Assembly: GCA_001724265.1 (NCBI GenBank)
Contig: MEDY01000230.1
Location: forward strand, 1 to 47,267
Reading direction: 5' to 3'
DNA length: 47,267 nt
DNA from: Rhizaria sp. SCN 62-66
Taxonomy: Eukaryota
Shown here: positions 8,543 through 41,000 of the stretch, in pieces
Position numbering within the stretch: the first letter of the stretch is position 1
How the letters are laid out: each line of letters begins with the position of its first letter
The notes under the pieces: model-generated
Told to the model about the DNA's origin: nothing
Seen by the model: only the letters and a program-made list of their open reading frames with translations
Databases searched by the model: none
Program-made: the position numbers and the translations under genes

Positions 8543-8573
<31 letters not shown>

Positions 8574-9445
8574 TGCAGCTTACTAATAATTTCCAGTACG
8601 GCAGCGTCAGAGCTGTCAAATCTGCTGCTGTTTGTGTTGCTTATGTCTTGCGCACTGATGTCACACTCTTCATCGCCATATACCCCGACACTTTCACAAT
8701 CATACGCAGGCATTGCCTGATGCTACAGCTGCTCTACCGTATCCTTGCTCACATTTGCGCTCTTTGATGCGTCCCAGCGGCACACGCGGCTGTCAACTGC
8801 TTTTGCCTGCGTTGTTGTATCTAGTGCCGCAATTGCACCGCTGCGCAAATAGCTTAGTGCGCACGAGTTAGACAGTGCCATGAACTAACGACGTTGCTGC
8901 TGCAGTAGTCGGTGTCGCTTTAAGAAGGCGCTATGATCAGAACTATGAACTGGCTTAGTTCTGCGGGCAGTGTGAGTGTGTGGCCGCAGCTTCGGACTTT
9001 GCGGGGATGAGAACGACTGCGGTCGCAGCTGTGGACTAGTCCGAGGAATGTGTGTTTGCGAGAACGGACTCTTGGGAGACAGATAGCTTGAGAATAAAGG
9101 CTTGCTGGCACCTGAACCCATCGTGTCAACTTTTTGCTTGATGCAGCAACCTTGCGAGGTTGCTTTTGGTTTTTCAAACGGCAAGAGCATTGGACTGAGG
9201 ACTGTTGAAGCAAGTTGCGATGATGTGGCCCGTATCCAGCTGCGTAACGCTCTGTATGGCAGCGTCCAGACTCCGCCCGGACTCCAACTCGTGTAACCTC
9301 TCAATTCATCATGCTCGACAATGCTTGCGTACGGCCGGAACGGATTAGTAGTAGCGCTGGCAGTAGCGAGCGGGGCCGCAAGGCACAATGAGAAGATGCA
9401 GAGCACAAAATGAATGACGGTGCTACGTCCGACAGACGGGGGCAT
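7076..9445 (-). CDS. Signal-peptide-bearing protein with a RelA/SpoT-like (alarmone synthetase-type) nucleotidyltransferase domain, about 736 aa, 2 exons (9445-8222, 8062-7076), two in-frame TAGs (8885-8887, 8723-8725)
   Basis: ORFs 8885-9469 and 8201-8713 share a frame and are separated only by TAG codons. A phase-0 gtacag...ggcag intron gives KQEK|PWFNIEHIRDSLRF. Motifs KS..G...K..R, D..R, GWR, VEFY and H.LFE.WR occur in RelA/SpoT order. TAA stop. Confidence 0.65.
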
Positions 9446-9999
9446 TGAACCGGCTTGTACGCCCCACACCTCGCACTTACAAACTAAAGAGAGAACTTCA
9501 AGTCAAACAACAAGATAAATCCTCAGTTATAGTTAAAGTATGCCTCGTATACAGCAACGATGTTGAGAACCTGACATGTTTAAGTCGTCACCTGTTCAAG
9601 TTCGACTGCGAAGTGCAACAACAAATCGCATTCTGTAGTTTTGATTGGAGCGATAGATCGTTGGATAAAGTCGACATTTTATTTGTTCTTGCATTTTAGT
9701 ATTCGATTTAAGCTTGATTAGGGCTTATACAAAGATTGTATGCCCAACAACTACACAAATTTGCGTTGTATCTAATTGTTTCGAACGCTTCGAGTTCATG
9801 GGTCGATGAAACAAGAAACAGGGCGAGAAAATATAAGATTTATTTTACTTGCAATAATATATCTAAGTAACTTCACAAAGCAACTTTGCGACCCTCCATA
9901 CACGAACAAAGTCCTGGGATATGCGTGTCCGTAAGTGAGGTGGCCAGCAGTGGCCTGACCAAGAGTACTGCAAGGCCGTGGAGCGTGCGCGCATCCGCC

Positions 10000-11088
10000 T
10001 CAGACCCCCCAGCCGTCACGCTTAACCGTGACAAACAGCTCGGGCCACGTGGCTGCCACCACAATCGCCACCACCAGCAGCGCCGCAGCGGCTTTGAGCA
10101 GCATCAACACGGCAGCGCGGCCACTGATTTTAGCGCTGACCGACGAGGTTGCGCCGCCGCCGCTACTGCCATCACGGCTGCTGCTGCTGCTGCTGTCGCC
10201 GGGGGCGGTGTCGGGGGCAAAGCTCACCCGCTTACCACTCACACTATTAGCGTCGCCGCTAGTGCTGCTAGTGTTGGTGCCGGGGCCGGCGTACTTAAGG
10301 GCGGTGGCCGCGGCGTCCTTGGCCGCTTGCGACAGCCCCACGCCCTGGGCCTGCGCCAGCGCGAGCTGGATGCGCAGCGCGCCCGCCGAGCCGAACTCCG
10401 CCCGGAGCTCCGAGGGCCCCTCAGTGATGGCTCCGCCGCTTACGGGCGCGGATTCGGCCATCCGCTTCGCCGAGTCGGCTGCGAGCCGTTGTGCGGCAGA
10501 CAGCAGCTTGGCCGAGTCTGCCCGGAGCTTAGCCTTCGCCGACTCATCATTTTCGGCGCCGTCAGCAGCAGCAGCAGCAGCACTCACGGACGATGACGAG
10601 TCAGCATTACCGTTGTCGTGTGGTGTGTTGAGGTGTGCGAGCCCGTTGTCTTCGTTCCACTTCTGCTTCAGAGCAGCAAGCTTCTCCGTCATAGCCACAC
10701 GCCGGCGCGCGTCCGCGATGCGCTGCTCAGCGCGTGACGAGGCCGTACTCTGCTGGGTATTGACAGCGCCAGCACCTTTGCTGTTGCTGTTGCTGTTGCG
10801 GAGACGGAGCTTGAAGTCGGGGTTTTCGAAGTCCTTCAGCAAACTGTCCATCTCGTCATCACCACCCTCATTGCTACTGCTAGCGCCGGCACCCACACGC
10901 GCCGCCTTGCCCTGTGTAAGTACACCCTTAGACTCGAGCGACTGCAGGATGTCGTCCTTATCTCCGCCCAGCCGCTCGATGCGGCCCGTCCTTGGGTCGA
11001 CGATGACACCCTGCGCCTGCAGGCGCGCGCGCTCGAGTTGCTCCAGAGCAGCCAGGTCAGACGTCAGGTCTGTGTGTATGTGTTTGTG

Positions 11089-11152
<64 letters not shown>

Positions 11153-12605
11153 AGGGGAGCAAAGGACAAAGGAGAAGAGAATACAAAAATACACAATAGG
11201 AAGAGAGAGTTAGCAGATGAATGAAATAAATGACAGTTATTGAGTACAAACAACAGTAGTTGACTCAATAGTTGTTTAATCTGTGAGATAAAATCAATGT
11301 TTTGGTATCGTGATAGAGAAACATGGAGACGTGCCTGTGGCGAGGCTATTGATGGCCTTGCTGAACACCCCCGCCGTCTTAGTGCTGCCGAACCGGTCCC
11401 CCAGCGGGGCACCGGTACTCGTGACCCCCCTACGCGTTCCACCTGCTGCGGTGTCGCCGTAGAGGTCGATAACGGGCATCACGGGCCGCGACGGGTCGCC
11501 CGCCACCAGCGAGGCCAGGATGCCGGCCTCGTCAGCAGCCGCGGCAGCCCCGTCTTTCGCCATATCGTCAGTAGCATCGGCATCACTGTCGCTTTCCTCA
11601 TCCTCTTCTTCCTCCTCTTGCTCATCGTTGCTCTTGGCGGCGGAGGAGGAAGTTAGGCCGTGCTTGGCGGTAAGCGTCTCCCGATGGCTCTTGCGCTGCT
11701 TCATCACATAGCGCTTCACAGCCACTGTGTACTCGTCGCGGCCCTCGTCCACGGCGCCCGCGGCGGCGACCATCGCGGGCGTGATCTCGGCGAGCGTCTT
11801 GACGCCGTAGCGCTCAGCGATCCCCCGCCTTGTCACTATGGCGTGGCGCGTGTACTCCTCGGCCATCCGCTTGTTCTCCTCGTCAAAGAACAGCCGCGCA
11901 AGCCGCTCGTACTGCAGCGCGCGGTGCACGTCGCGCTTCAGCGCCGCGGGGGCGACAGCGGCCGTCGCGGCGGTCAGCTACGAGGAGGCCGGGTCCGTGG
12001 TCTCGGCGGCGGGGCGGTCGATGAGATCCAGCGTGAGCAGTTGCGACTCGTAGATAAGGCGCTCGGCGTTGCGAAAGCGGAGTGCTTCGTCAAACTTCTT
12101 GTGGAAGACGCAGATGGCCGAGAGGCGGCTCAGGCAGAAGGTGATTTGCTCGAGGTTGAGCACGTTGGTGTGCGTGTCGAGGATGTACAGGAAGTACTTG
12201 ATCGCCAGTTTCTGTGTAAAACGAATAAAAAACAAGTAGTTCAATATAATAGAAACCAATCCTATTTAACATATATCCCACGGTCATTTCATGAGTTGCG
12301 ACAAAAGTGTGTATATGCGGAATACGTACGTGCTTGCCGTCGCGCTCGAGCTCTGCAGCGCGGACGAGGTAGTCTTTGACCGTGAGTTTGCTTGCTGCAG
12401 CCGCGAAGTCGGCGTGGTCTGCAAAGAAATCCGCAGAGTCGGTGTCATCGCCCGTCGTGGCGGCGTTGGAGGACTGGGGCTGGCCGATGATGTTGCCGTC
12501 TGCGTCGGGGAGTCCGGCGAGCAGAAGCTGTTTCTCTTCCTCGGATAAAACTACCGCAGGCGCGCTAGGTGCGCTCGCAGGAGAGTCCTTGTTTAAACTA
12601 GCCAT
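10000..12605 (-). CDS. Consortin-like protein: TPR-like helical N-terminal domain and C-terminal transmembrane helix, 3 exons (12605-12330, 12211-11335, 11069-10000), one in-frame TAG (11978-11980)
   Basis: Phase-compatible introns (second is GC-AG). CLSRLSAICVFHKKFDEALRFRNAERLIYESQL resembles the consortin N-terminal helical repeat. Hydrophobic AVLMLLKAAAALLVVAIVVAATW near the C-terminus. TGA stop. Gene model is more certain than the family call. Confidence 0.6.
11071..11152. repeat. Imperfect (TG)n/(CA)n microsatellite inside an intron, abutting the acceptor
   Basis: Read directly; the minus-strand CA run ends in cacacag, the acceptor of exon 3. Confidence 0.95.
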
Positions 12606-13099
12606 ACTTTTCGTTCGTCTAGTTTTCGGAAATCAGTGCGAAAGGCCACGTGACGGATTATTTCACGAAGATATCAAAGGTGCTACATTTGCTCGTTCAA
12701 GCACCCTCGCTTGCTGCCAGACCGGCCGACCCGTTGGCTGAAGTAATCCTTTTAGTCTGCTGAGAGAGCAGGCGCGAAAAGTTTGAATTCGGGCGACTCT
12801 ATTACGGGTTATATCTCCTCAACCATCCATTTTCAGTTTGTGCATATTAAATATATGGTTTAAAAAAGGCGGGCCTATCGATTTTTATTATTAGCAGACA
12901 GTTATATTGTACCTAGCATTGTGCAGCCGTATTTTTCTAGTCCTTCCCGCTTACTCGTTTGTTCCTTCCCAACTTTCACTTCCGCGTTCTTGCCCCACCC
13001 AGCCTCAAGCTTTTTCGAACTTTAACCCCGCCTGATTCGTAGAAACCTTCGTTTTTAATATCCTCACGGTGGTGTCACCCGTTGATCTCACCCCCGCAG
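12606..13099. promoter_or_regulatory. Probable shared divergent promoter region
   Basis: About 490 bp AT-rich spacer between head-to-head starts at 12605 (-) and 13100 (+). Inferred from gene geometry only. Confidence 0.4.
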
Positions 13100-16000
13100 A
13101 TGTCTGGGCGTCTCTCCACGGACCCGCTCGTGGCGTCGTTCGTGTCCTCTGAGCGCGACTACATCGAGCTCCTCGGCGTCCTCGTCCTCGAGTGCTTGGA
13201 GCCCCTCAACCGCATCTGCGACATTCCTTCTCCCTCCACCTCCGACTCCCACGCGTCGCTGCCCGTTACCGAGCCTCCGCCGGCGCGTTTCGCGCGCGTG
13301 GTGCGGCAGTTCACTGCCTCGCTGCCGACGCTCGCGCAGCACCAGCTCACGCTCCACTCGCACCTGCGCCTGCGTACGCTCACCTCAGCCTCGCACCTCG
13401 CCGCCGCGCGCGCGCTTGTTACGGCATTTTCCCCGCTGCTGCCGACGCTCTGCGACGCGTACTCGGCCTTCGCCTCGGAGCTGCCCCTGCTGCTGCCTGC
13501 GCTGGGCCAGCTCGTCGACGCCCAAGACGCCGACTTCGCCGTCAGCAACGTGCTGCTGACTGCCGTCGAGGCACGCCACCGCGCGCGCTACGCAGCGTTG
13601 CTCTCATTGCCTTCGCCTGCCGCCGCCGGGACTGTGCGCAGCAGCAGCAGCGGTACCAACGACGATGATGAGAGTGATACCACTCCTCCGTATATCAACA
13701 ACATCAGCAGCAGCAGCGGAAGCGCCAATCACTCCGCAAGCGACACGCCCGTGCCGTTCCTTGTTGCCGCGCTGCGCCAGCCGCTTGCGCGCGTGCCCGT
13801 TTACCTCGCTCTGTTCAAGTCCCTGCGCACCCGCCTCGCCGCCGCCGCCGCCGCCACCACCGCCTCGACGCCGACTCGCAGCGCCGCTGCGGAGGAGGAT
13901 GACGGGGATGAGACGAGCCTCGAGACGTACCTGGCGCACACGGACGTGATTCTGGCGTCGCTGGAGGCGCTGGCGGGCTACTGCAGTGGGTTTGAGGACG
14001 ACATCGCCGCGGCCATTGCGCAAATGCCCTCCGCGTCCAGTCAAAACACGTCCTCTAACACCACTCACGGCCACGGCCACGGTCATGCGCTCTCTGGCAG
14101 TGCTGCGTCTCACTGCAACAACAGCATCAACGGTCAGTCTGCGTACAGCCGCAGCCGCGGCAGCGTCAGCAACAGCCAAAGTGACAGCGGCAACGAGTCC
14201 GAGACCGGCGTCGGCTTCCGGCTCCCGCGGAGGCCTCTGCTTGCCAGCGACAGCCCAGACGCCAGCGCCAGTTCCAGCGCCGGCTCCTCCGCCGCGCACA
14301 GCCAGTCTGACGCTAATCTCCCCGGTCACAGCGACGGCGACAGCGACGGTGACGTCAGCAAGGCCCATACGCAGGCGTTGAGTCGGCACAACGACGCGTC
14401 GAGCCGGCATGGAGACATCTACAAGACGTCTTTCATCCCCGATCCCGTGCCAGCGGGCGCCAAGAGCGGCAGCAATACCAATAGCGCCAGCGACGCAGGC
14501 TGCAGCAGGCGCGGCTCTGTAGCCGGCGGCTCTACTGCCGGTGTCGCTAGCGCCGCTACCGCGAGTGCGGCTACGGAGGCGGGGCTGGGCGGGCTGCCGC
14601 TGCCGACGGTGACTCCCGACACAGACCACTACGACGACCACAACGACAACAACTATAACGAGGATGACCATGGCTACAACAACGGAGACTACGCTGATGC
14701 CGAGGAGGCGGGTGACCACGGAAACTACGGCTACGATAACGAGGACGACGCCAACGACGCACTGCAGCGGGAGCGGGAGCATGCGGCCGAGGCTTCCAAT
14801 GCCGATGTCGGGGCTGCGAACTACAGCAGTCTCAACGCGAGCGCGAGCGCGAAGCCTAGTGCTAACACCGCTGCCAGCGCCAGTCGTGGTCACAACCGCG
14901 CACACAGCATCAACGGCCCTGCCAGTCAGGCCACTGCTGCTGTCGCCGTCGGTGGTGGTGATGGCGTTGACGCTGCCGACGGGGCTTACGGCGGCTTCAA
15001 CCCCCCCGCGCCCGCGCAGTCGAGCCCCAGCTCCAGGTATGCTTCCCCAGTCAAGGGCCGCAGCCGCGAAGTCACGCCCACCAAAGACGCCGATAGTAAC
15101 AATAACAACAACAACAGTTCCAGCGCGAGCGCGGGCGCGGGCGCGGGCAGGACTGTTGTTGCGTACGACCGCGGCAACCACACTGTCGGGTACCAAAGCC
15201 ACGGCCACTACGAGCTTGGCCCCAACAGCAATGTCAGTGAGTTTGGCAACGTCTACAACGATAACGGCCACGACGAGGCTGTCGCCGCCGCTGCCGAGGC
15301 TGCCGCGACCGACGCCGAGGCTGCCGCTGCCGCCGCGCTCGTCTACGCCAAGGCGGCCGCCGCCTCCGCCAACGCCGCTTCCGCGAGTGTCGGTGCAGAC
15401 GTCCGTGTAAGTACCCCCTTAGACGGCGCTGTAAGCGGCAAGGCGACGCCAGTCTACCGCGCGCCTACCCCCGTCGCCCACACTCATGCGGCCGCTCACG
15501 GCGCTGTTGCAGGTGCGAGCCAGAGCGCCACGCCTGTCGCGCCTGTTGCATCTGTTGCTCCCCACACTCCTGGCTCGATCAGCGGGCGCGCCAGCGCCAG
15601 TGCCAACGCCGCTGCTGCTTTGACTGCTCCCGGGCTCAGCGCCAGCCGCCCGCAGCCCCAGCCACAAGCTCACACCACTCACTCTGGCAGCGGCCACGGC
15701 GCGGGTGCCGCGGGTACTTACACGGGTGCCGCGGATACTTACACGGCCGCCGATCGCACTTACACGAGTACCCATGCCCACGCGTCCGCTCCCGTGCCCG
15801 CGACGGGCGACAACGCTGTTGTTGCGCCCCGCCGTATCGTGATTGGCGTATACACGAACCCCACTCCTGTTCCTGCTGCCCCGAACGCCCACAACAACAA
15901 CAGCAGTAGCAGTGCGGTGGTCAATGCAACTCAACAGCATCAGCAGCAGCAACAGCCTCAAAACGGACACAACATCGCTGCTTACCGCCGCTCCTCGCTC

Positions 16001-22727: not shown

Positions 22728-23706
22728 GTTTAACTTGAAAACACGACTACGCAGAAACTGCAATGATACAGCTCTTTGTGGTTGTTGCAAGAGACGGTTT
22801 GAAAACAGGCGCGACCATCACCACCCCGCCCCAATTGACAGTGAGCAGGTGGAAGTTTCGGGCGTGCACAGTCACCTCTTAACAATCAAATTCAGCATTT
22901 TAAGCTAAACAATCACAATTCATGACTTGTCTACCGTGAATTTTTCATCTTTATTGTTTTGTGCGAGTTTAACATGTTATTGGCTTAGTTTCGGTGAATG
23001 ATCTTATTCGAGTCGATACTATCAATGACCAAGCGTCAATATCAAAACAACAGGCTTGAAATTTTAGATAACTGTCAAAAATGCTGAAAAGTAGAATGAC
23101 GCTTTGCTAGTTGTATGCTTAACTCAGCTTATTAGCGAAATATCGTCATAAACCCAACGTTTTGTTCGAGACCACGCGCCCTCCAACATCCAGATTCTGA
23201 AGAGATACCAATGGCTTTAAGTACATTTCTGGTATGGTGGGATGTAAAATCCCTGCTATACCAATATATTACACTTACACTTTATATTATAACGGGTGTC
23301 ACTTAGTAGCGTTGTTTTAGTGATGCCAGGCGACCATAAATGCATTTTCTTTTTCGGAACCGACGAGTGTTATGGTGACGTTGCCCGCTTCCTGTTTCGT
23401 CGAATATCTCACGTCACACTCGTCAGTTATCTTCACAAGATAACTAAACTATTTTCCCGCCTATAAATCATTACTGATTCTTTTTGCATTGTCATTCAAG
23501 GCTATTGGCTTCCTCTGTCAGCAATGATTCTTCCTCCCTCTACACCCTTCCAGCGCACTCCCTTCAAATTTCTTCTGTTTCTCATCGCCACAACGAGTAT
23601 TGATCTTGATCTCACCATATAATGTGATTCATTTCATATAAACACTACAAATACTGCCTCTGCCCCCTTGACACTTTTCCACTGTCCCCATATCCCGCAG
23701 AAAGGC

Positions 23707-26700
23707 ATGTCAGCTCCTGGCCTGCTAGGCGCCGCCGCAGTTCCCTCTGCCGCCTCCGCCGCCGCCGCCGCGCCCTTGGCTGCCCGCCGCGCGCGCCCGC
23801 CGCCCTCCCAAGCCGCACACGCCTCTTCTTCCAGCTCGACGGGCGTTGATGCGACCGGGAACGAGGGCCGCGTCACGCGCATGAAGTGGCTGTACAACAC
23901 CATCACGGCCTACGGCACAGAGTACGAGTTCTCCGACGCTGCGCGCCAGTGGATCAAGGAGCGCGTTGCCACGGCCGACGTGTCCTCGCGCCGCGACCGC
24001 CGCTTCAGCACCTGGTGGGAGGACTCAAGCAGCAAGACCCCGTCCGGCGGCGGCAGCGGCGGCGCTGGCCTCAAGAGCGCAGTGCTGCCTGTGCTGGCGC
24101 CCTCTGCGGCCGCGCAGACGCTCGCCGTCATCTCCGCGGGCAACGCGCACAAGCTCAGCCTCACGGACGTGCTTTCCTCTGCGTCGCTGCTCTCGGACGT
24201 TAAGGACTGCCTGGAGGATGTGCTGGGCTCCCACAACCTCGAGTTCCTGGAAGCGGTCCAGTGCTGGCTTGATGACATGGAGGACCTGCCGGCTGACGCC
24301 CCGCGCGCCGCGCGCGACACGCTGCTCTTCGACGGCGCCGTGTCGATCTACTCGCAGTATCTGGACCGCGCGACGGCGCGCGACAACCTTATCAACGTGC
24401 CCGACGACGTGCTGACGCTGTTCCAGGCGCAGTTCGCGCTCGTCAACAAGACGGGCCGCGGCAAGTGCGGGCCCTCGCTGCTGAACCCGGCCATCTTCGA
24501 CCCCGCCGTGGCGGCCGTGCGGCGCTACGTCGAGGACAACCTCTGGCCCGATTTCGTCGCCAGCGACGACTATACCGTGATGTGCATCTCGGCCGCCGAT
24601 ACCGCCGCGCGCGCCGCCGCCGCCGGCAACGGCAACGCCAACAGCGCCGCCGCGCGCGCCGCCGCGGCCGCCGCCAGCAAGCCGCTGCCGGCGTCGCGCT
24701 GCGACTACAACGACACGGTGCCGAAGCTGCCCTATCCGGCGCTACTCTCTGCGCCGCTGCCCAGTTGGGACCACGCGATGGCGCCGTTCAACAGCATCAC
24801 GGTCACGGTCAGCAGTGGCCGCGGGCCGATGGCGAGCATGAAAGGCAACAACCAGCTCTACGTGCTCGTCACCGCGGGTTCCTGCGTGCTTCGCGGTGCC
24901 CAGGTGCCGTGCATGTGGGGGGAGACTTTCTCGCTGCCGGTCGCCGCGACGCTTCAGTGCGTGACCGTCGCCGTCTGCCTCGGCACCAAGCTCGTCGGGT
25001 TCATCCCCATCAACATGAGCGAGGTCGCCGCCGCCGCCGCCGCCACCGCCGCGGGCACTGCCATTAACAACGGCGCGGCGCTTCCCGTGACGAGCTACGA
25101 AAGCGAGTCCCGCTGGTATGCGCTGCGCGACGATGCCTCCGCTAACAGCAGCTCGAGCAGCGGCAGCGGGTCCTTCACCAGCGCTGCTGGGTCCGCGTTG
25201 GACACGGCCGCGGGCACGTGTCCCGGGCCCGGCATCGACCGCACGGCGCCGCCGTCGGGCCGCAACGAGGTGTTGATGCACTGGTCGCTGTCGCAGGTGG
25301 AGCCGGTGCCGGTGGTCATGCAGCCCGACAACGTCAAGGCCATCTACGTCGAGGAGTCAGCCACCGGCGGGCTCGGCGACTTCATCCGCAACAAGGGTAC
25401 GCTGACTTTTATTAGTTGTACTTTTCTTATTATTTACCGCCTTACTCTTTATTTTTCAATGCGATTCTTTTCTTTTTGTTTCTAAAAGCTCACACCTGTG
25501 CTGTCAAATCTTTACTTGTTGCTGTTTCTCGCTGTGCTTGTGTGCGTGCGATACAACAGTGTCCAAGAAGAAGAAGCGCTTCACTGATGACAACTTCAAC
25601 CTGGACCTGACGTACATCACGCCCCAGGTCATCGCCATGGGCTTTCCCTCCGAGGGCGCCGAGGGCGTCTACCGCAACCCCCTCAAGCAGGTTCAGCAGG
25701 TCCGTTGCAATGCTTCTCAAACCCACTCACTCATTGCAGTCTACGCAGTGCTTAACAAATGAGCTACGATCTAAAACGAAGCTCTTAGTTAAATTTGTTT
25801 GCTATATATGTAATATTTTTCATGACTTTCTTTTTACTTCGCTCACCTCTTTATTCCATATTTCTCGTTTTTGCTCCGCACTTACATACAGTTCTTCAAG
25901 TCGCGCCACCCGAACGCGTACCGCATCTACAACCTCTGCTCGGAGCGCGCCTACGACCCGAGCAAGTTCGAGGACCGCGTGCGGCGCTTCCCATTCGACG
26001 ACCACAACCCGCCCCCGTTCACGATGATCAAGGAATTCTGCGAGGACGCGCGCGCCTTCCTGGCCGAGCACCCACAGAACGCCATCTCGGTCCACTGCAA
26101 GGCGGGCAAGGGCCGCACGGGCACCATGATCGCGTGCCTCTTTGTCTACCTCGGGCTCTCATCGGCGCACGACGCGCTGATGACGTTCGGGCGGCAGCGC
26201 ACCAGCAACAGCAAGGGCGTGACGATCCCGTCGCAGATTCGCTACGTGCACTACTTCGACAACTACTGCGCACTGCGCCGCGCGGCCAAGGCGGCTCCCG
26301 GCAAGACGACGCTGTTCTTGCAGCGCGTGCTGATCCGCAACATCGGCCGCACGCACGCTAACAGCGAAGTTTTCTTCACGATCCTGGAGCCGAACCATAG
26401 CAACGACGACGTGGGCGACTCGAGCAAGGTGAAGCTGTATTCGTCGCGCAAGCTCGTCGATCCCGTCTACTACGTCAACACCGACTCGCTCTGCTGGGAG
26501 CTGTCGAAGAAGCTTGTTGACCTCAACGAGGACTTCCGCGTCGAGTTCGCCGCCAAGACCGGCTTCGGTCGCGAGAAGATGTTCCAATGCTGGCTCAACA
26601 CACGCTTCATGAAGCTCGAGCTCACCTCAGGTGGGGAGCCGCGCATGGTGGTGCCCAAGCGCGAGCTCGACAAGGCCTGCAAGGACATCCGCAACAAGCG

Positions 26701-26968
26701 CTACCCGCCCAACATGTACCTCGAGCTCGTTTTCGGCAACACCGCCACGGCCACCAAGATCAAGGCCGCAGAGCTTACTGTCACGCCCACCAACGCCGCC
26801 GCCGCCGGCCGCGCCGCCAACGCCGCTGCTGGCGCTGGCGCTGCAGGGCTGGCTGTGGCTGTGGACGGCGCCGAGAGTGCGGCGGCCGCGGCTGCCGTGT
26901 CTGGGCTGGCGTCCCCCTCAGCGGGCACCACGGGCGTCACCACCGAGGTCGCCGAGGAGCCCATTTAA
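23707..26968 (+). CDS. PTEN: RGS domain - C2-like domain - PTEN (phosphatase + C2) fusion, 3 exons (23707-25396, 25560-25699, 25892-26968)
   Basis: PTEN signatures VSKKKKRF...LDLTYI...IAMGFP...[27 protein letters not shown] and [15 protein letters not shown] motifs [22 protein letters not shown] and WPDFVAS. Introns are phase-compatible. TAA stop. Confidence 0.9.
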
Positions 26969-29396: not shown

Positions 29397-30152
29397 TCCC
29401 GGCCGTTTGCGGAAGTATACACGCGTTTTAGACAATGTAATCGGATGTGAAAAACAAATGCCGACTCGATACCTTGCGTGGGTAGACTAACGTGTTTGAA
29501 ATACAGCGTTGTGACTCTTCGAAATGTCAAGAACAGCAAGTTCGCAAATCGCGATAGAAGTAGGAGAGAACATGTTAACATGGAGTACGTATATGAATAA
29601 ATACTCTATTTGCAGCGGAGTGCACGTTTATCTCCGCCATGACGCATTACACAATGGATATAAGGCACCTGAGTTGCTTACCAAAACCGAGTCGTCCCAG
29701 TTGAGTTTGCATTTCTCACAGTCAACAAGAAGAAAAAACAGTTTGTATTACTGCCATCCCAGACCCAGCCACTCGCACTCTGTATCACGGTTCCTAGTAA
29801 GACACATTATGATCGTCAAAGCGAATTTTGTACCTGCCCCATGTTTTTCTGCGCGTTACCACATATCTTTGTTCAATTATACTTCTGGAAATACCAAATT
29901 ACCCTATGGATTGCTGAACAGACTCTGGTTGGTTCACTCTGCCCGTGGTTCATCGCACAACAACAAAATCGAAGCTGGACTTACAAATTCATTTTTGCCA
30001 ATTGTTCTATGCAACGTTTCAAATTATTCATAGGTTGCTGGTACAACAACAGCTCACTTGGGTCGCCGTTGAAACACAGACCCAATCTTAATACTTTGAG
30101 ACGTGCTCGCGGCTACTTGGACTCCGTTCTCTCCGAGTTCTGAGGTATCGCA

Positions 30153-33100
30153 ATGAAGACCTTTTCTCCCCCCGTTAAGGGTGTTGCTTCTCCCTCTTCT
30201 CTTAATGCCACTGCAGCGGCCTCAATTCAATCTGACCGCTCGGGGTCGAGCAAACGCTCCAAGCTCGCCCGTCTGTCCCAAGTCCCCATCAACGAGCGCG
30301 TCTTTGGGCTCGGGCTCACCTACACCGGCGACGGCGACCCAGCGACGGGGATCCGCCACGGCCGCGGCGTCCTGACGCGTGCCGACGGCACGGTGCAGTA
30401 CGACGGCCCCTGGCGCGACGACAAACGCCACGGCCGCGGCATCACGCGCTTTAGCGACGGCAGCTGGTTCGAGTGCGAGTGGACCGACGACGTGCCAGCG
30501 GCACAGGGCGTATTGCAGACGCAGACGAATGTCCAGTTTACCGGCGACTGGGAGCTCGTGAACGGGGAGCCGCTGGCGCGCATGCTCGCGACCTCGCTCA
30601 GTCCCGCGCTGCAGCCGAGCGCGCGCGGCCGCGGCAGGGTGCGGTACGCCGACGGCGCGATCTACAACGGCGAGTGGCGGCACGGCCTGCGCAACGGTTC
30701 GGGCGACTACCTGGAGCTGGTGGCGCAGCGCGCAACTTACGGGCACTGGGTTGACGGCAGGCTGGACACGACGCGGTGGTTCACACGCGCCACAGCGTGT
30801 GGGCTGGTGACAATGCCCGACGCGTTTGCGATGCGTGGCGAGGCGCCGCGCACTGGCGACGAGTACGTGCAGAGCAAAGCGACGGATATTGACTCTGATG
30901 AGGTATTGCAGGGAATTCGGTTGCAATATGACATTGGTCAGATGACGCATCGTTTATTGTCGTACATTCTTGTCCTTTGTCAGTCTCTAAATCCGTACTC
31001 TACGAGTTCGCTGACAGCCGCGTTTGCCGCGGCGATCCTGTGGCACAGCCGCACCACACACAGCCTCGAACTGCTCAAGCGGTCCTGCGACGTCGGCGAC
31101 GAGGACTGCAAGGACGCATCGCGGCTTTCGTGCCCCTGCATCAACCTCGCGTGTCCCCACCAACGGATCGTGCGTTCTGTGTACACGGGCCAGCTTGACC
31201 GCGCTGGGCTGTTCCCGCGCGGCCGCGGCGTGTTCGAGTCGCGCTGGGGCGGCATGACGCTGTGCGGCGACGGGTGGGACGATCTCGACGTCAAGTCAGG
31301 CCGCGCGACGTACGCGGCAACGGGCGCCACCTTCACCGGGAGCTGGCGAGCCGGTAAGTGGGATAGTGGTGAGCTGCAGCGCAATGACGGGCCTTCGGTC
31401 GCGAACAAGGTATGGGACCTGGATGACCTTATCAGATTGAGCTTCACGCGTATAAATGCAGCCATGAGCTCACATGGACGCGGTAAGCTGACTCTTTATG
31501 ACGGCAGTGTTGTCGATGGAACTTGGGCGGACGGTAAGCTGCTCGATGGCTTCACTATAAAATCCCCGTTTGGTTTTATCCAAACCAAGTCTTCCACGAC
31601 AATGTTGTCGGCCCTTATGGGCTCTTTTTCAAAGCTTACGAAGGTGTCAAAGCCAAAGCTTCAGAGGGACGATTTTTATAGCTGTGTTACTGCTGGTGCC
31701 ACATCATGGCTTGACAGCTACACTTGCTCTGGTCCCAGGCCTCGCAGGGTTTGCCACAAGATGACGTTTCGAGGCGAATGTGCTGTTTCGAGCTCTGGCA
31801 ATGGATTATCCTCTATAGAGGCCCTTTCGGAAACCCACGAAAGCTCCTCTGCTTCCACGATCACGCTTGATGCGTCCGCGCTCACCCGTGACTGGCGGCT
31901 GAGTGTGGACGCTATGCGCGGGAGCGATGGCCCCAACACCAACATGTCAACCAAAACGATTCAGTACAGCGAGACGACGAAGCGGTGGGAGTCGATCTAT
32001 TCGGCGTACGAAGAGTTCGCCACGAAGTCTGCGGCTGCGCGCACTGTTGCGCGGACTCGGTCGTCATCGTCGACGTTCAAATGTACCTTTGTGGAGAAAC
32101 TCAACGCACCAAACAAACACATCAAACCGACGCCTGTCATTTCCATGCGCCCGAGTCTAGAACTCAGTGTTGTTGGTTGTTTTCCGATCCTCAGCTCGAC
32201 CCTTCGCCCTGAGCAGGCCATGACGCTGGTTATGAAGAACGGCAATCTCATTACCGGCGTGCTGTTTGATGTACAGCCGCGGCGAATGACACTGTTGCCG
32301 CATCCGGAGCAGCTGAGGATGCAGCTCGCCCACGGCCCCGTGTTCGTGGCTGACCCTCCCAGCGCGGCCGCCCGTGCAGCGTACCCGCGCGGCACGGCGC
32401 CGCTGCTTGGCAAGATGCTGTTTCCCGACGGCAGCAGCGAGACGCGCCGGTACGAGTGTTCATCTCCGGGCAGCACCGCACCGCCACTCTCCGACGAGTT
32501 TGTCACGCGCCACGGCTGGCGGCTGACTATCAGGCGCGAGCCTCAGTACCGCAGCGCAAATTGCCGCTGTACACCGTTTGCCCATTAGAAGAAGTTCAAC
32601 ATGTGCCAGCTGCTTGAGGCTGTCACGCCCAACGGCACTAAGTTCGATGGCTCTTTCCGCGCCATTTCACCGTGGATGCACACTGCGCCGACCGAGCTTG
32701 TGGGCCTCTTCACGCTGCCCAACGGCGTTACGATGCAGTTCGAGAGCGTGCACATCGACAAAAAGGCGCCGTTCGAGGGCGTCCAGTGCGTTGTGACCGT
32801 GCCGGGCCGCTCAGAGGCGCTCCGCGGGTGCTGGCGCGGCGACACATTCGTGGGCGCGGGCGCAGCGGGGGCAAAGAGCGTGCTACTATCGACCGACGAC
32901 GGACAGTACGAGGGAGAACGCAACGATGCCGGCGAGCGCCACGGCCAAGGCAAGTGTGTATACGTGACCGGTGCAGTGTACGAGGGCCAGTGGGAGCACG
33001 GGGTGCGCTGCGGCCAAGGAAAGTACACGAACTTCGTTGGTGATGCGACGTATACAGGCGCATTCAAGGACGACTGTGTTCACGGCCATGCCGTGCTGAC

Positions 33101-34652
33101 GCGTGTCAACGGCACAACGCTGACCGGAGAGTGGGCCGCTGGGGCATTCACGTCAGGCGTGTACATTGATCTTTTAAAAAACACAATCAATGTTGCCTAT
33201 TCCTCCGATTTTCCCCACGCAATGTTCTGCACAAAAGACGCGACGCTCGTGCTCGTCGACGAACAGCTTTACGCCTCCATCTACAAGGGCGGGGTCGTTG
33301 ACGGCCTTCCATGCATGCGAGGGACGCTCTGCGTCTACGCCGACTTGGACGCCCTTTGCCACGACACGGCTCCGCATTCGTCGCAGAGGATGGCACAAGT
33401 GCGGGAGCATCGATTCGCGACATACACCGGGGTTTGGTTGGCCGGGCAGTTCGTTGGTTTGGGCGAGATTAACATCCAAGACACGCAGTACGAGTCGCGC
33501 AACTCTGACGTGAATAATTTGCAAGTTGAGATCTCGTTCGGCGAGGGCAGCATTTACAACGGCAGCGCGCGTTTCACCGAGTTTAATCATATCGAGTTTC
33601 TCGGGGAGGGAGCTGTGGAACATTTCGAGTACGGGCGCGTGTGTGAAGGTCAATGGCGTGCCGATGACTACTCAACGATCTGGGGCCACAAGATGATCTG
33701 CAACGGGAGCGCAAACATCCTTGTTCAGGATAGTTTTCTGTACCCGGTTGAATCTTGTCACTTCGAACTGGTTGGCGAGAAAGTTTTAGCGACTGGTGCC
33801 CGCTCCACTGTCAAGATTGATGATGAGCATGGCACGGATTAGAATGGCATCACCTACGAAGGTTCGTTGATTGAGAGTTGTTTGCCTCACGGTTATGGTA
33901 TGAAAAAGACACCCGACAGCAAAATTCTGCAGACTGAGGGCTATTTCTGCAATAATGGCTCTCTGGGGTTCGGCGTGTCGAAAGCGGCCAACGGCGACGT
34001 GTACACCGGCCAGTTCAAGCGCGGGCGCCGCCACGGCTTCGGCCGCATGTGCTACGCCAACGGTGACTTACACAGCGGCTGGTGGATTGCCGACCGCCCC
34101 GGCGGTCTCGGCACGCTTGCCACCGAGCGCGGCGCGCTGTACGTCGGCTACTGGGACGGTTCCGAGCCTCTGGGCGACGGCTTGGTGCTGCACTTCGCAA
34201 ACCTCAAGCACAGCTTCGGTCCGGAGTGGCAGCAGGCAGCGAAGCAGGCGCTGGCCGACCGTGCGACGGAGCGGCGCTGGGGCCACCGCCGCGGCATCTC
34301 CCCGCGCAAGGCGACGTGGTTAGGCCCGCGTGACGAGCGAAACAAGCCCTGCGGCGCGGGCGTGATGACGCGCTTCGACGGCGTTGTGGTGCAGGGCACG
34401 GCGCGCGGCGGGCGATTGACTGGGACCGGTGTGATGCACTACCCGGACGGGACCGCGTACTCGGTGACCTTCGACCATCAAGGTCGTGTGGTGGAGGCGC
34501 GGCCCTGTGTCAGCGCTGCGCGGCCGCACGACGGGGCCGCCGTGAAGAAGCGGGAGCTGTCGGCGCGGCTCGCGGGGCTGCTGCAGCCCGTCGACACGGA
34601 CGAAAAGGAAGAACAACGTTTAGATGAAGACTTCTTTACGTCTTTGGTTTAA
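30153..34652 (+). CDS. MORN-repeat protein, 1499 aa as one intronless ORF with two in-frame TAGs (32586-32588, 33840-33842)
   Basis: ORFs 30153-32588, 32601-33842 and 33867-34652 are in one frame and separated only by TAG. MORN repeats (YxGxWxxGxRHGxG) occur in all three parts. TAA stop. Confidence 0.85.
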
Positions 34653-35156
34653 GATCGATCAATGCATTTTTGTCAAGAAATCGACTTGTTACTTAGTGAA
34701 GTCTGCGGGTTTCGGTCAGATTTCGAATAGATAAACCGAAACGAACTGTAAATAAAACTGACTTTTCACGGACGTATTTTGCCATGAGATTTTCTTCGAC
34801 TATTTCTTTGAGTTGTACAGTTTATGTATTCTCATCGTTTTTCCAGGTTATAATCAGGCTAACACATGCATGGCAGGAGGGGTTTGAGTCTCACATACAT
34901 GTTATGGTCACCAAGTAAGTTGTGATTCAGATTCATACATAATAAATCCAGGGACACTGTGACACCATCATCGATGATTGCATTCGAACTAGAGCTGATG
35001 TTACATTATGACAGTCGCAAAACGCATGCAATGCACACACGTACTCATGCTTGTACATGTACTCATGCGTGTCGTCCACACTCTATAGTGAAATAGCGAC
35101 CGACGCTGGCGACACCCACTCGAACATTCCTTCGTCAGCACCCATGTGCGCGGCAC

Positions 35157-37322
35157 TTAATAAACGACGACGCGGCGCACGCTTGGCGGCGGGCTCCGGC
35201 TGCGGCCGCGGCTGCCGTCTGCCACGGGCGCGACAGTCAGTTCGGGCTTCTCACGCCTAGCAGCGATGCCGGCGGCGGCGGCGGGAGCGATGACCACAGG
35301 CTTGTCGGTCCGGACCAAGGTGGCCTCGGGCTTCTCTGTGATCACAGGGCCAGTAGCGGCGGCGGCGGGGGGCTTGTCGCCGGGGGCGCGCGGGGCAACA
35401 ATCACCGGCTTGTCGGTGCGCACGACCGGCCTCTCAGTAGCGGGGGCAGCGGCGCTGTCGCTGGCACGCGCGCGCGCACGTGCACTCTAACGCGCACGGG
35501 AAGCGAGCTCAGGCGCAGGCGCAGGCGTAGCAGCGGTGTACTCAAGCTCACGGTCACGGTCGCGATCCGGTGAGGTTGCGCGGAGCAGGTTGCGGCGCCC
35601 GCGCTCGGCCGCGCTCGTCACGGCGCTGTCGGCGGCGGCGTCGGGGCTGTCCTTGAGAAGCTTCTCCCGCATCTTCTGCACTTCGCCACGGATCTTGCGG
35701 ATCTCATCACTGAACTTGGGGAAGTTCTGCTTGAGCCACGCGCTCTCAGCCGTTTCCGCACCGCCGCGATGGATCAGGCGGACCGCGGACCAGAGCATCT
35801 GGCGCGGGGTGTATTCCAGCATGCGGTCGCCGTCCCAGTCGCGGAAGTTCAGCCGCCCCGCAGGCTGGTAGGTGTCGAACAGTGCGAAGAGCTTGTCCGT
35901 CGAGCCGCGGTCCCTGGCGCCCTTCCAGAACGACCAGAGCCGCGCGAGACTCTTGGCGAGGAGCGAGTCGGTGTCCTGGCGCAGAGACTTGACCAGCTCG
36001 GGGTAGTCCTTGTCACTGCGCAGCGCGGCCATGGCGGAGGCGAAGTCGGCGTTGAACTTTCGCCACTCGGGTGAGTCGAGCGCGATCGCGGTCGACGTCA
36101 TCACGAAGCGGCGCGAAACTACGGCGTTGTTGTTGTCGTTATTGGCGCGGTTGCGGTTGTTGTTCATGTTGTTGTAGTAGAAGTAACGCTTAAAGAGATC
36201 ATCGAGGTCGAGGTCATCATCGTCATCGTCATCGCGGTCATCACGGCGGCCACGGTGCTTGAGGTCGTCATCATCGTCGTCGTCATCGTCGTCAAACGTG
36301 GTCATACGATTGTAGCCACTGGCGACCGGCCGCGGCCGGCGCGAAGGCCGCCCCAGTCGCTCAGAGCTGGGGCCGTACTCGCCCGCGCGCGAACCGCGGA
36401 CGGGGGCGACGGGGCGCGCTGTAGGATTCAGGCCCTCGCCGGCGCCGGCCGGAGCGGTGGGGGCCCCGTACCCACTGTCGTCGTTGTAAAGCGTGTACAT
36501 CGACAGCCCCTCAGGCTCACGCTCACGGTCACTCAGGTCGCGGCTGCGGCTACGGCTGCGGGAGCGGGACAGCGAGCGCGAACGCGAGCGCGACCGGTCG
36601 CCCTCGCGGCTGAGACTGCGCTCGCGGGAGAGCTCGCGGGCGACGTCACCACGGTTGCGGCTAAGGCTGCGGCCCTCGGAGATGGCGCTCATGATCGGCG
36701 CGGGCGTGCGGTCGCGCGACCGAGAGGGCGACGTGGCGCGCGCGAGACGGCGGAGACGGATCTTCTCGAGGATGCGCGCCTCGCGCGGGGTGAGGTAGGC
36801 CTCGATCATCTCGCCCATGTTGCTCGCGCGCGACAGAGGCTTGGACTCGTCGGCTGCAGTCTCGATCGCTGACGGTGACGTGCGGGCGGAGGCGGGGGAC
36901 GGCGGGTTCAGGTAGGACGAGAGAGAGCCGGCGTTGTCGCGCTCGAGAGATGGCTCAAGGGCGCGCCGGAAGCGGTTGCGGAACGAGGCCGCGGGCGGTG
37001 CCGCGGTGTCATCCGCCGCTGTGAGAAAAGAAGAAAACAGGCAGGGAAGCGAAACAGACACGATGAGAGCACGGAACGATGATTTCAAGTATCCGGGAGT
37101 GAAGTAGGTTGGTCATACAGTACACAGCACAGCGTAGATATGAAGGTAACAACACTTTTTAATGTTGCTTGCTCAAGATCAACTTCCAGAAACATGATGA
37201 ACTGAGAGGGATGAATGTGACAAGTGGGACTCATGAAAGTGAAGATACGTACCAGTCGCTACGTAGGAACTTAAAACGCAAAGAAGTACAATCAGTACCC
37301 CCATGGTTAATAGAAACCTCAT
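35157..37322 (-). CDS. Orphan secreted protein with RS-rich, acidic and TDKPV-type repeats, about 643 aa, 2 exons (37322-37253, 37018-35157), one in-frame TAG (35487-35489)
   Basis: Exon 1 is signal peptide MRFLLTMGVLIVLLCVLSSYVAT. Phase-1 gtacgt...cacag intron. The frame stays open 109 codons past the TAG with the same GC-rich codon style until TAA. Confidence 0.7.
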
Positions 37323-38029
37323 GTGTGATACAGGTCTAGTGTCACAAGATCACGATGTTCAAGCAATATCAAATTATGAGCAAAGCAAGATCATGGCCGC
37401 GGGACTGACAAGATGCTGCGCAACTTGAAAAAAAGTGCCTTCATTGTCAGTCACGAAAAGCAAGTGCATTCGTCTCAATGCGCGCATGGTAAGGGCTTGT
37501 ACACACGCGCTCTCAAAATGTCCGATTTTATTTCACACATCAAACTTGTTTTGAGTTCGTGTATGCCTGACAGTACCTTTGTTCAAGTTCTACAAACTTG
37601 CAACTGCTGACAAAACAGGAGATATCGTATGTTGATAAATAGACACAACTTAGTTATCAGGTAAATAAAGGTATCACTACCCATGTTATCACACGTTATA
37701 TGGATATCTGATACCGCTGTGATGCAGTGCAGTTGTACGCTGTTTTAGACAAATTCAAGTCCAGCTGCAGTCGGCAGACGGGACGCCGATTTGGGTCGGC
37801 GACAACGAGAGGTGACGAAGGTCCTCCTAAAAAGCCTCTGCAGCTCGTCTTAAATCCGTTACTACAATATATCTTTGAAATATGATCCAGATCTTACACG
37901 CAAATAATACGTCATAATAATGAAAGCCTATTATCTAACTCCTACCGAGCCCCTGTTATCCTTGCCATCTTAGCCCTTTCGCCCCTCGACTCATCACACC
38001 ACGCTTGGCTTGCGTTGCCTCTCTGTGAG

Positions 38030-41000
38030 ATGGACGACTCAATGCAGGAGCAGATGCTCCGCCACCTAAACATTACTGCGCAAGCTGCCACATCTCCGCC
38101 GTCCGTTTCTGTCTACAACACCCAGAAACACCCGCAAGCCCAGTCTGTCGCAGCCTCTGCCGACTCCAGCACAACTCCCACTGGCCCTATCTCGACAGCG
38201 TTCCCTCCTCCCGTCTCGACAGCCTTCCCGCCCCCAACTGCACCCGCGTTGTCCCCGCTCGCCGTCTCGACCGCGTTCCCGCCCCCCATTGCGGCGGCCG
38301 CGCCGCCGCAGCCGGTCTCGACCGCGTTCCCCCCGCCCGTCTCGGCGCCCCGCGCCGCGACCGCCGCCGCGCTGCGCGCGCTCGCGTGGTCGCCAGTCGA
38401 GCGCGACGACATCGCCGTGCTCACGCGCAGCGAGGTCCGCGTTTATCGCGCCGCCGCGCCTCCGCAGCAGCACTCGGCGAGCGCAGCGCAGCCCGACTGC
38501 ATGGTCTCCGGCCGCCGCGGTGACACGCCGTTCGATCCCCTCGGCATCTTCTCCGCATCGGCCTCCGCCGCCGCCTCGGGCGACTTCGACAGCTTCTACC
38601 CCGGCGCGGGCGCGGGCGCTGGCCCGCCCGGACTGGCGCTGCTGGCGACGGTGCCGCTGCCAGCGCTTGACGCCTCCCAGGCGCACAGGGCAGTGGCGTG
38701 GGGACCTTCGTACCGCCTCACGCCCGGCGGCGCCGCCGCGGCCACCTACGCCGTCAACAACAACAGCTGCGGCGGCGGCCACAGTGGTGGCGCGGGCGTG
38801 GGCCGGTCGGCGAGTGCGAGCGCGAGTGCGGGTGCCTCGAGCGTCGCCGCTCTGACCGCGCCCGCGACTGCGTTCGACAACTCGAGCCACATCGCGCTCG
38901 GCCTCTCGAGCGGTCGCATCCTCGTCGCGAACCTCGGCGCGCCGCCCCTCACGCCCGCGTACACCCACGCCAACGCCTCCTCCTCCGCCGCCGCCTTTGC
39001 CGCCTCCGCCGCCGCCGCCGGTGCGACGGGCTACGACGTGTCGCATCCAGCAGGCGGGGCTGCGGCGTTAAACTTCTCTTTCGCGCTGGCGCCGCGGCAC
39101 GCGCGGCCCGTCCAGTGCCTCGCCCTCTCGCCACACCCGCTGGCACCGTCGCCCGCCGCGCTCCAGCAGCACCAGCAGCAGCTCCAGTAGCAGCAGCAGG
39201 CGGGTGGCTACTATGGGAGCGGCTGCGAGGCGCCGGCGCTGTCGCCGTCGCCGCTGCTCGCGGTGGGCTACGACTACATGCGCGGGGACCACAGCGTGCT
39301 TATCTGGGACCTGCTTGCGGCCTCGGACAACACTGCCGCCGCCCGCAATGGCGCGTGTTATCCCCATAACAGTAATACACATAGCTCGAGCTTCGTGACT
39401 GGCAGCAGCCACGGGCAGTACGGATCTCCGTATCCCCCCTATCCGCCCGTCTTGGCTGGCCTGCAGCAGCAGCCCTCGTTTGCGGCGCACCTCGGAAACG
39501 CGGCCACGGTGCCGCTGTATCGCGGCGAACCCATCACGCGGCTGCTGGCCTCGGACTCTGCCGCCTCGCTGGCGTGGCTGCCGCTGTCGCCCGGTACGTG
39601 GCCCTTGCACTGACTTCACTCGCAACAATCTGTTATGTTGATCTATAATTCATTGTGACAATCTATCGACATCTTTATTATGTTCATTTTCTCTCACGTC
39701 TGCTTTAATCCCATCATCTTTCGTCACATTGCGTTGTTGTTTATCGAAGGCTGTATTGCGACTGGCACCAAGTTCAAGTGGTTGCGTTTCTTTGATCTGC
39801 GCAGCAACGCCATGACATCTGCAAACGCTGCCAACACGAACGTCAACGCGAATTTCGGTAGTTTTAGCTACACAAACAAAAATGCGCCAAACTCGACGTT
39901 CGGCGGCTACAACACCAGCAGCACCGGTTTGAGCTCCAACGGCCACGCCATCGGCTACCGCTCGCGCCCCGGCGCCAGCTGCTTCCCGAGCGGCGGCGCC
40001 GGCGGCTTAGCTTCCGCCCCGGTGACCGTGGGCTGCATCCCGAGCATCACGGTGACACCGCGGCCCATCACGTCGATCGTGGCCCACAACAAGGTCACCA
40101 GCGGCATCGCGCCGGAGCCCCACAACGGACACTATCTGGCCACACACAGCGACGATTTGATCGTGAAGGTCTGGGATTTCCGGTTTTTGCGCAACAGTTC
40201 TGCCCCCGTTGCTACTATTGATGTCAGCCTCAAGCAGCACTCGATCAACAACGACTTTAACAGCGCATCCTCTGCTGCTGCTAATGCTGCTTCGATCGCT
40301 GACGGTGACGGCGCCAGCAGCGGCAGCGGCCTCGGTCAGCTCGTCTCGGTTGGCTGGTGCGCTCAGCGCCAAGGCGTCCTCGTCACCGTGACCACCACCA
40401 ACGACGCCGGCTCCGGCGGCGGCGCCAGCGCGGGCGGCAGCGGCGGCGGCGGAGGCGTCGTGAGCATGTGGGATGTTCAGACCGCGATTAACGCTTCCTC
40501 AACCGCGATCACTGTGGCCGCGGCGAACAACAGCGCAGCGCCCAGCTCCGCAGCCGCCGGCTCCGTCTCCATTGACGCCGCCTCCGCTGCCGCTTCCGCT
40601 GCAGCCACAGCGTCGGCTGCTGCGGAGAGCGTCGTGGCGATCGCCGAGGGCCGCCGGCACTACACCAGCGACAGCGTCACCGCGGCTGCGCCGCACCCGG
40701 AGCAGGCGGCGCGCGTCGCCATTGCCCTCACCGCCCCGCCCCAGCACGCCGCCGTCGCTGGTGCGGGCGCAGGCGCGGGCTCTCTCAGCGGCGCTGCGTC
40801 GGCGTCGTACGCCAGCACGCCGGGCGGCGCGAGCCTCACGACCGCGTCCTGGGCGCTGAGGGACGTCACCCTGGTCGGCCCGCTGCCGATTGCGCTCGCG
40901 CCACCGCTCGCGCAGCTCACCGCCACCGCCGCAGCCGCTGCCGCAGCCACGTCCGCGCGCGGCAAGCTTGCTGTGGCAGGCGCCGCGGCCGCGGGTGCCG

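Follow-up and report, generated by a model that had tools for sequence, protein, structure and literature searches.

UAG as a probable sense codon, with UAA and UGA kept as stops, in a contig from an uncultured GC-rich protist of wastewater and bioreactor communities

The stretch of DNA analysed here in its entirety, 47,267 bases long and hereafter called the window, is a contig from an uncultured GC-rich protist of wastewater and bioreactor communities, in which the codon UAG is probably decoded as an amino acid, UAA and UGA remaining stops. Seven in-frame TAGs are found in five genes, at 8723-8725(-), 8885-8887(-), 11978-11980(-), 32586-32588(+), 33840-33842(+), 35487-35489(-) and 39188-39190(+). 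An earlier note on this DNA had listed the same seven and taken UAG as sense with TAA and TGA as stops; each TAG does lie where it was said to, on the strand given and in the frame of a long open reading frame (ORF), and the proposed meaning is now supported by orthology along a MORN-repeat gene, by the in-frame splicing of a MIOS-like gene, by synonymous differences between strains and by the continuity of GC content past the TAGs. In-frame UAG inside conserved coding sequence is encountered three times, twice in the MORN-repeat gene and once in the first exon of the MIOS-like gene.

The MORN-repeat gene is divided by its two TAGs into three segments, all of which contain MORN-type alignments:

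30153..34652, + strand: MORN-repeat gene, 1499 codons followed by TAA, with two in-frame TAGs; Pfam MORN E=2.6e-24
32586..32588, + strand: first TAG of the gene (TAG1), aligned with a Met of the ortholog P0287, between a conserved His and a conserved Lys
33840..33842, + strand: second TAG of the gene (TAG2), within an 8-residue insertion relative to P0287; MORN repeats continue 3' in the same frame

The search for homologues, which covered 1.84 billion representatives, found a piece of the protein of a relative (P0140), the 90% cluster of which also contains P0287, the ortholog in this relative, present as a single ORF of 1484 aa on 4 contigs, the longest of 205,739 nt. P0287 and the window gene align end to end at 50% identity with no frameshift, identity being 47% before TAG1 (359/762), 56% between the TAGs (227/408) and 50% after TAG2 (132/266). 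Because P0287 is an unbroken ORF, identity is not lower past either TAG and the frame never shifts, the three segments constitute one conserved gene with both TAGs inside, TAG1 standing 685 codons before its end. In databases this gene is held in pieces, namely P0138 (811 aa), which ends at TAG1, and P0139 (413 aa), which extends from the first ATG after TAG1 to TAG2, since standard gene callers cut the protein at TAG. In an earlier search with length limits these split pieces were hidden, and the best matches were generic MORN proteins with 23-28% identity. A short GT..AG intron was also considered at TAG1 and rejected, as the only one seen (32569-32588) has 20 nt, a length not divisible by three, and its removal would disrupt the frame confirmed by the ortholog.

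Regarding the relative itself, the last 245 residues of its protein are also called as a separate protein (P0142) on 2 other contigs, with the same sequence as the 1484-aa ORF has at its end; a stop, an intron call or the joining of contigs may interrupt the frame upstream on those two, and in-frame stops may exist in the relative too. Scanning metagenomes with the MORN protein returned 2 loci, both from the organism of the window (JGI contigs, 100% identity) and neither spanning a TAG, and no DNA of the relative; scanning prokaryote genome contigs with the MORN alignment for mis-binned protist DNA returned 33 pattern matches and no relative.

In the MIOS-like gene, the TAG belongs to the first of three exons:

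38030..39593, + strand: exon 1, from ATG 38030 to the donor G/GTACGT, in frame with exon 2
39188..39190, + strand: TAG, inside a CAG-rich run (…CAG CTC CAG TAG CAG CAG CAG…)
39594..39749, + strand: intron 1, GT..AG, 156 nt, AT-rich; joined as G + GC, the exons form a Gly codon there, and both ORF frames are preserved
39750..42963, + strand: exon 2, ending CG/GTAGGT, with weak WD40-type Pfam matches
42964..43126, + strand: intron 2, GTAGGT..TTAG, 163 nt; the letters TAG at 42965-42967 belong to the donor and are not a codon
43127..46265, + strand: exon 3, ending with TAA; Pfam zinc_ribbon_16 E=5.2e-17 and MIOS_a-sol E=1.1e-4

The three exons join in frame through GT-AG introns, and the frame containing the TAG is therefore the frame that splices. 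Sequence differences between public runs bear on the same region: one run (X4) comes from a strain that differs by about 0.4% (at 74 places in 19,968 aligned bases), and among its listed differences the three that fall between TAG 39188 and intron 1 (39337, 39481 and 39520) are all at third positions and synonymous. The 39 differences listed for this strain are distributed as 17 in coding parts and 22 outside, though coding sequence makes up most of the stretch. Length differences between runs were also seen, namely a 3 nt deletion at 39417 (X10), 3 nt (CCA) at 42651 and 6 nt in 35305-35535, all of them multiples of three in low-complexity coding sequence. The splice joints expected from run alignments neither confirmed nor refuted any intron, the table being dominated by low-complexity repeats.

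Beyond these two genes, base composition separates the TAGs from the gene ends. The drop in GC from the 150 nt before to the 150 nt after the codon ranges from -0.05 to +0.07 at all seven TAGs and from 0.09 to 0.31 at all 11 TAA or TGA gene ends, two sets that do not overlap (Mann-Whitney U=0, p=0.0003). As previously claimed, the TAGs are not surrounded by AT-rich introns, GC in the 150 nt after each being 0.47-0.75, close to the value before. Scoring the codon usage on either side of every stop was tried as well and dropped as not discriminating, antisense and shifted frames of GC-rich, Ala-rich coding DNA scoring equally high.

The codon itself recurs in sequence from elsewhere. In the DNA of an independent study (X3), one contig matches 31217-33431 with 0 differences and covers TAG 32586, and another matches 38091-39208, again with 0 differences, and covers TAG 39188, ending 18 letters past the codon. 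In a polyA library (X10), which possibly contains DNA, a contig at 35305-35535 spans TAG 35487 with 0 other letters, and coverage is also found at 32632-32894, after TAG1, and at 39284-39527, after TAG 39188; a further run (X5) was flagged as probably DNA, and places that a run leaves uncovered carry no meaning. For RNA the evidence is thin, amounting to the single polyA contig at TAG 35487.

Across the conservatively drawn coding parts of the window, 10,772 codons in all, there are seven TAGs, no TAA and no TGA, which corresponds to a UAG usage of 0.65 per 1000 codons or, if UAG means Gln, to 2.2% of Gln codons (CAG occurs 249 times). Eleven gene ends were placed, nine in TAA (1073, 6214, 7076, 21645, 26966, 27557, 34650, 35157 and 46263), two in TGA (10000 and 21041) and none in TAG; the earlier note counted 12 genes, ten ending in TAA and two in TGA, of which the twelfth was not placed. 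The long PDZ gene, described as lacking TAG, does lack it over the 2666-codon ORF at 13043-21043. The ORF ends at 8201, 11294, 25483, 28686, 39611 and 43034 are frames entering introns rather than gene ends. The coding frame of every exon with a TAG is free of TAA and TGA, and in the MORN gene and the 8222-9502 exon every other frame carries many stops of all kinds. At gene ends UAA is preferred (9 of 11) despite 80% GC at third codon positions; the same preference is described in the rhizarian exLh and in Guttulinopsis (PMC5304391) and in UAG-reassigned ciliates (PMC11687900).

Such counts have to be read with care. The absence of in-frame TAA and TGA is partly circular, because the ORFs were delimited by these very codons; it is also seen throughout the 1499 codons of the MORN gene, the limits of which the ortholog sets. 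The merging of ORFs across TAG is no evidence by itself, because in the control, where TAA or TGA was read as sense, long ORFs of this GC-rich DNA were fused too, through introns, untranslated regions and open shadow frames. It had further been argued that random pseudogenisation or sequencing error should give TAA and TGA as well. Seven TAGs out of seven do have p ~0.04 under random nonsense, but the argument is weaker than implied, for at this codon usage 62-64% (about 63%) of random single-base nonsense changes would yield TAG. As these simple arguments are weak, the case rests on the translation of the sequence 3' of each TAG.

The four remaining TAGs are located in three genes of no known family:

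35157..37112, - strand: ORF of an Arg/Ser-rich protein, family not recognised, ending with TAA at 35157
35487..35489, - strand: TAG of this ORF, 110 codons before the TAA; the weakest of the seven cases
11335..12100, - strand: middle exon of a gene of no recognised family ending with TGA 10000, holding TAG 11978..11980
8222..9502, - strand: exon or ORF of a gene of no recognised family, with two TAGs, 8885..8887 and 8723..8725

For the Arg/Ser-rich protein, the homologue search matched nothing but a 524-aa piece of the protein itself (P0288), cut off at the TAG. GC is 0.74 before TAG 35487 and remains at 0.75 beyond it, the fall to 0.53 coming only past TAA 35157, with a GC-rich block that extends to 35112, and it is on this continuity and on ORF length that the coding status past the TAG rests. 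Around TAG 11978, GC is 0.64 before and 0.69 after, and GC at third codon positions is 0.86-0.90 on either side; judging from splice-site motifs, this exon possibly joins the exon 10003-11069 in frame, via a GC-AG intron or via a GT donor at 11322. The candidate intron, 11070-11334 (-), has a GC donor (CAG/GCACGT) and a long (CA)n microsatellite just 5' of the acceptor; (TG)n/(CA)n microsatellites are seen at 2-60 and at 11090-11160, the latter inside this candidate intron. The coding frame of 8222-9502 (427 codons) contains no TAA, no TGA and two TAGs, compared with 11-28 stops in each of the other five frames, and probably continues past a donor AAG/GTACAG at about 8221; its coding status after the TAGs is deduced from GC continuity, ORF length and these frame counts.

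Several points weigh against UAG being sense in this organism. The base is one 47-kb window with about 11 genes, and with so few gene ends TAG may be an occasional terminator. None of the TAGs falls in a strongly conserved column, TAG1 facing a Met and TAG2 a gap, and neither the gene at 8222-9502 nor that at 11335-12100 has homologues in the Pfam and homologue searches. TAG 35487 may be a genuine stop with open, GC-rich 3' sequence beyond it, as a run of 110 open codons is not unusual at GC 0.75 (estimate ~0.4). The 1484-codon ORF of P0287 contains no stop of any kind, and the relative therefore gives no sign of sharing the code. RNA support comes down to one polyA-library contig across one TAG, where DNA carry-over is possible, and the X4 contigs 31217-32774 and 32898-33961 each have one unlisted difference, which may fall at a TAG site.

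Four other explanations have been considered in the light of these observations. UAG might be ambiguous or leaky, that is, a terminator in some genes that is read through in those of the window by context, as where a code has no dedicated stop codon, or by near-cognate tRNAs, with no dedicated tRNA(CUA). The great rarity of in-frame UAG (7/10,772) and its restriction to weakly constrained positions would suit such a situation, as would the position of TAG 35487 just 110 codons from a TAA, and finding no TAG among 11 ends has P=0.17 if the TAG share is 15% and P=0.04 if it is 25%. Yet not one TAG terminator is present among these ends and, with 685 codons of the MORN gene beyond TAG1, low read-through would lose most of a conserved protein; leakiness is accordingly considered unlikely. 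Still less probable is a standard code, under which the TAGs would be true stops and the frames downstream pseudogene remains, separate genes or open non-coding sequence. Its attraction is that TAG accounts for about 63% of random nonsense mutations, that long open shadow frames are common in GC-rich DNA, where TAA or TGA taken as sense merges ORFs too, and that TAG would then close five of about 11 genes, an ordinary proportion where a genome is rich in GC. Against this, the MORN protein of the relative is one 1484-aa ORF and the segments past the TAGs are equally conserved, splicing is in frame 3' of TAG 39188 and the three listed X4 differences there are synonymous, exon-like GC follows seven of seven TAGs, unlike the 11 real ends, none of the five genes has a frameshift, TAG 32586 and TAG 39188 are unchanged in the independent DNA of X3, and seven nonsense events would have struck with no TAA or TGA among them (p ~0.04).

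The TAGs might also be present in DNA and absent from mRNA, by U-to-C editing of TAG to CAG or by removal of very short in-frame introns. One TAG does lie within a CAG run, where CAG would be expected, but the polyA-library contig keeps TAG 35487 with 0 other letters, DNA carry-over being possible there, and the introns of this DNA are about 156-163 nt long, AT-rich and GT-AG, nothing alike flanking any TAG. Nuclear U-to-C editing of the TAG-to-CAG kind is not known to occur, and this explanation appears very improbable. As for an error of sequencing or assembly, or a chimeric consensus, to which a metagenome contig such as this one is exposed, it is the least credible of all: contigs of another study (X3) are identical over 31217-33431 and 38091-39208, two JGI contigs from this organism show 100% identity in their overlap, though spanning no TAG, and errors would not all yield the same codon in frame.

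Taking UAG as sense, which amino acid it specifies is far less constrained. All seven TAGs are at weakly conserved or low-complexity positions, none of them in a strongly conserved column, and the alignments therefore do not single out the residue inserted. Gln, which the earlier note held to be probable, was not established: the sole aligned residue is a Met, and on the PTEN tree the organism lies near a protein that probably belongs to exLh, in which UAG means Leu. Gln occurs within 3 residues of three of the seven TAGs against a background of 13% (p=0.055, the CAG run included) and Leu within 3 residues of three of seven against 34% (p=0.44), neither proximity test being significant. That Gln is the usual outcome of UAG or UAR reassignment and that TAG is one transition from the abundant CAG suggest Gln; that the Met at TAG1 is closer to Leu than to Gln and is reachable via TTG, and that the organism is apparently rhizarian, suggest Leu. 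On balance, the chances of Gln are about even, Leu is a serious if lesser candidate and any other residue would be rather surprising. Translation table 15 of NCBI has TAG as Gln, and the same table would apply here if the residue is Gln.

By analogy with known UAG-only codes (PMC5304391), a tRNA carrying CUA as its anticodon would pair with UAG and not with UAA, and could have arisen by one anticodon change from tRNA-Gln(CUG) or tRNA-Leu(CAA); an eRF1 with poor recognition of UAG would accompany it. In exLh, the eRF1 residue corresponding to human Leu69 is altered (PMC5304391). The rarity of UAG, together with the unconstrained sites at which it occurs, fits a codon that is young or inefficiently decoded. 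Within the 47-kb window, ARAGORN detected 0 tRNA genes, Rfam gave 0 matches and there is no eRF1 gene.

The organism was approached through an exon that holds no TAG:

25907..26968, + strand: PTEN-like exon, Pfam PTEN_C2 E=6.3e-14, used for placement

Metagenomic relatives of the PTEN-like protein share 62% (P0019) and 52% (P0020) identity with it. In a quick maximum-likelihood tree of 36 proteins picked from 120 listed, plus P0290, it belongs to an 18-row clade (SH-aLRT 99) in which the only members with an organism name, Bigelowiella natans and two species of Paulinella, are all rhizarian, and which also contains P0023. From this one gene and quick tree, the organism is likely a rhizarian. 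P0023 (UniRef100_A0A0A9XYQ8) stands apart from the five beetle PTENs of the tree; the nearby accessions A0A0A9XY89 and A0A0A9X7A0 belong to Lygus hesperus (PMC10642949), and exLh was found in the Lygus hesperus transcriptome (Panek et al., 2017, PMC5304391). Lying in a Lygus accession block and grouping with Rhizaria rather than beetles, P0023 is probably a protein of exLh. Its ORF starts exactly one residue past a column in which the other rows covering it have a conserved Leu (FL or WL before EHPQN), which is what a UAG codon for Leu read as a stop would give.

In the same region of the window (23705-26968, +), an RGS-like ORF (23623-25485) precedes the PTEN-like ORF (25826-26968), and the relative P0290 (852 aa) has both in one ORF; the two are probably one gene. 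The part of P0290 from a Lys-rich motif to the N-terminus of the phosphatase was not located in the window between ~25400 and 25907, and may be encoded by a small exon. Prokaryote genome contigs were also scanned with the PTEN alignment for mis-binned protist DNA; the 12 loci obtained were all bacterial PTEN-like genes of 31-40% identity (L003-L014), in metagenome-assembled genomes of Parachlamydiaceae, Protochlamydia, Anoxychlamydiales, Scalindua and others.

As a whole, the window consists of GC-rich blocks (0.56-0.75 GC) interleaved with AT-richer spacers, the long ORFs lying within the blocks on both strands and coding for eukaryotic proteins with runs of Ala, Ser, Asn and Gln. Coding parts have 60-70% GC, with a GC of 0.80 at third codon positions, and the introns recognised in the sequence itself have canonical GT-AG ends, a length of ~160 nt and a high AT content. 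The gene products comprise an end piece like a nucleotide-sugar transporter, an EF-hand protein, the PDZ protein (2666 codons), the RGS-like and PTEN-like gene, the MORN-repeat protein (1499 codons) and the MIOS-like protein with its C-terminal zinc ribbon; for the smaller ORFs of the window, Pfam gave 0 families (6 of 6). A three-exon gene at 27557-29402 (-), ending with TAA 27557, has a protein start resembling a signal peptide (MMNSRIYSVLVCVVL…) and a Pfam match in no exon; a guess that it encodes a peptidase was dropped, Pfam giving no support. The stretch 30100-39700 was found in 14 of the 16 public runs listed, from 9 studies, all of them metagenomes of bioreactors, wastewater, sludge or fuel cells.

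A code of this kind is known. UAG and UAA are nearly always reassigned together and are split in few eukaryotic lineages (PMC5304391, PMC11687900), UAG alone being reassigned in exLh (Leu) and Iotanema (Gln) (PMC5304391) and in several phyllopharyngean ciliates (Leu, Gln) (PMC11687900). In exLh, a member of the Sainouroidea, the genes reported end in UAA (56) or UGA (15), never in UAG, and 384 UAG codons are counted in 71 genes, UAG being the commonest Leu codon in proteasome genes (PMC5304391). The organism of the window resembles exLh in that UAG alone is probably sense, that the gene ends placed are UAA or UGA only, with UAA dominant, and that, on the PTEN tree, both probably belong to the same supergroup. 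It differs in that UAG is frequent in exLh and occurs in 7 of 10,772 codons here, and in that exLh is known from transcripts only, the present data being genomic DNA with introns; decoding as Leu belongs to exLh, and the PTEN of the window shares only 46-49% identity with the one attributed to exLh (P0023). As the nearest sampled relative of exLh apparently has a standard code (Panek et al., PMC5304391), a shared origin of the two codes is doubtful.

Iotanema spirale (Fornicata) likewise has a UAG-only code in which UAG is a minor codon, at ~8% of Gln codons, and UAA the main stop (PMC5304391), but its lineage is not related on the PTEN tree, built from a single gene, and the reading of UAG as Gln belongs to Iotanema. 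In phyllopharyngean ciliates too, UAG alone is reassigned and UAA is the preferred stop, with UAG as Gln also in Hartmannula and Trochilia and as Leu in TARA ciliates (PMC11687900). The PTEN of the window groups with Rhizaria. Besides, coding sequence of 60-70% GC, introns of ~160 nt and a multi-gene contig of more than 47 kb are features that we take to be un-ciliate-like. In the codes without a dedicated stop codon (Swart et al., 2016, PMC4967479), a stop is read as sense inside genes, as here, but all three stops are also sense, whereas 10,772 codons of the window contain 0 in-frame TAA or TGA. A partial literature search found no published report of such a code from activated sludge and no later work on exLh; in the text of a 2025 preprint on Rhizaria transcriptomes, the terms 'genetic code', 'stop codon' and 'UAG' occur nowhere.

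Within this known kind of code, the present case is distinct by its very low UAG usage, its habitat and its documentation in genomic DNA with introns. It may tentatively be seen as a second independent reassignment of UAG in Rhizaria, or as the first relative of the exLh lineage that is free-living and represented by genomic DNA, at an early stage. If true, close relatives with a standard code in the same metagenomes, the P0287 organism among them, would allow the stepwise capture of a stop codon to be shown. In practical terms, standard gene callers cut the proteins of this organism at TAG. The tRNA(CUA) and the eRF1 were only predicted for exLh in the account of Panek et al. (PMC5304391), and genomic contigs of the present organism, recurrent across several studies, could yield both genes. 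The very low usage of UAG bears, more generally, on how stop codons are captured.

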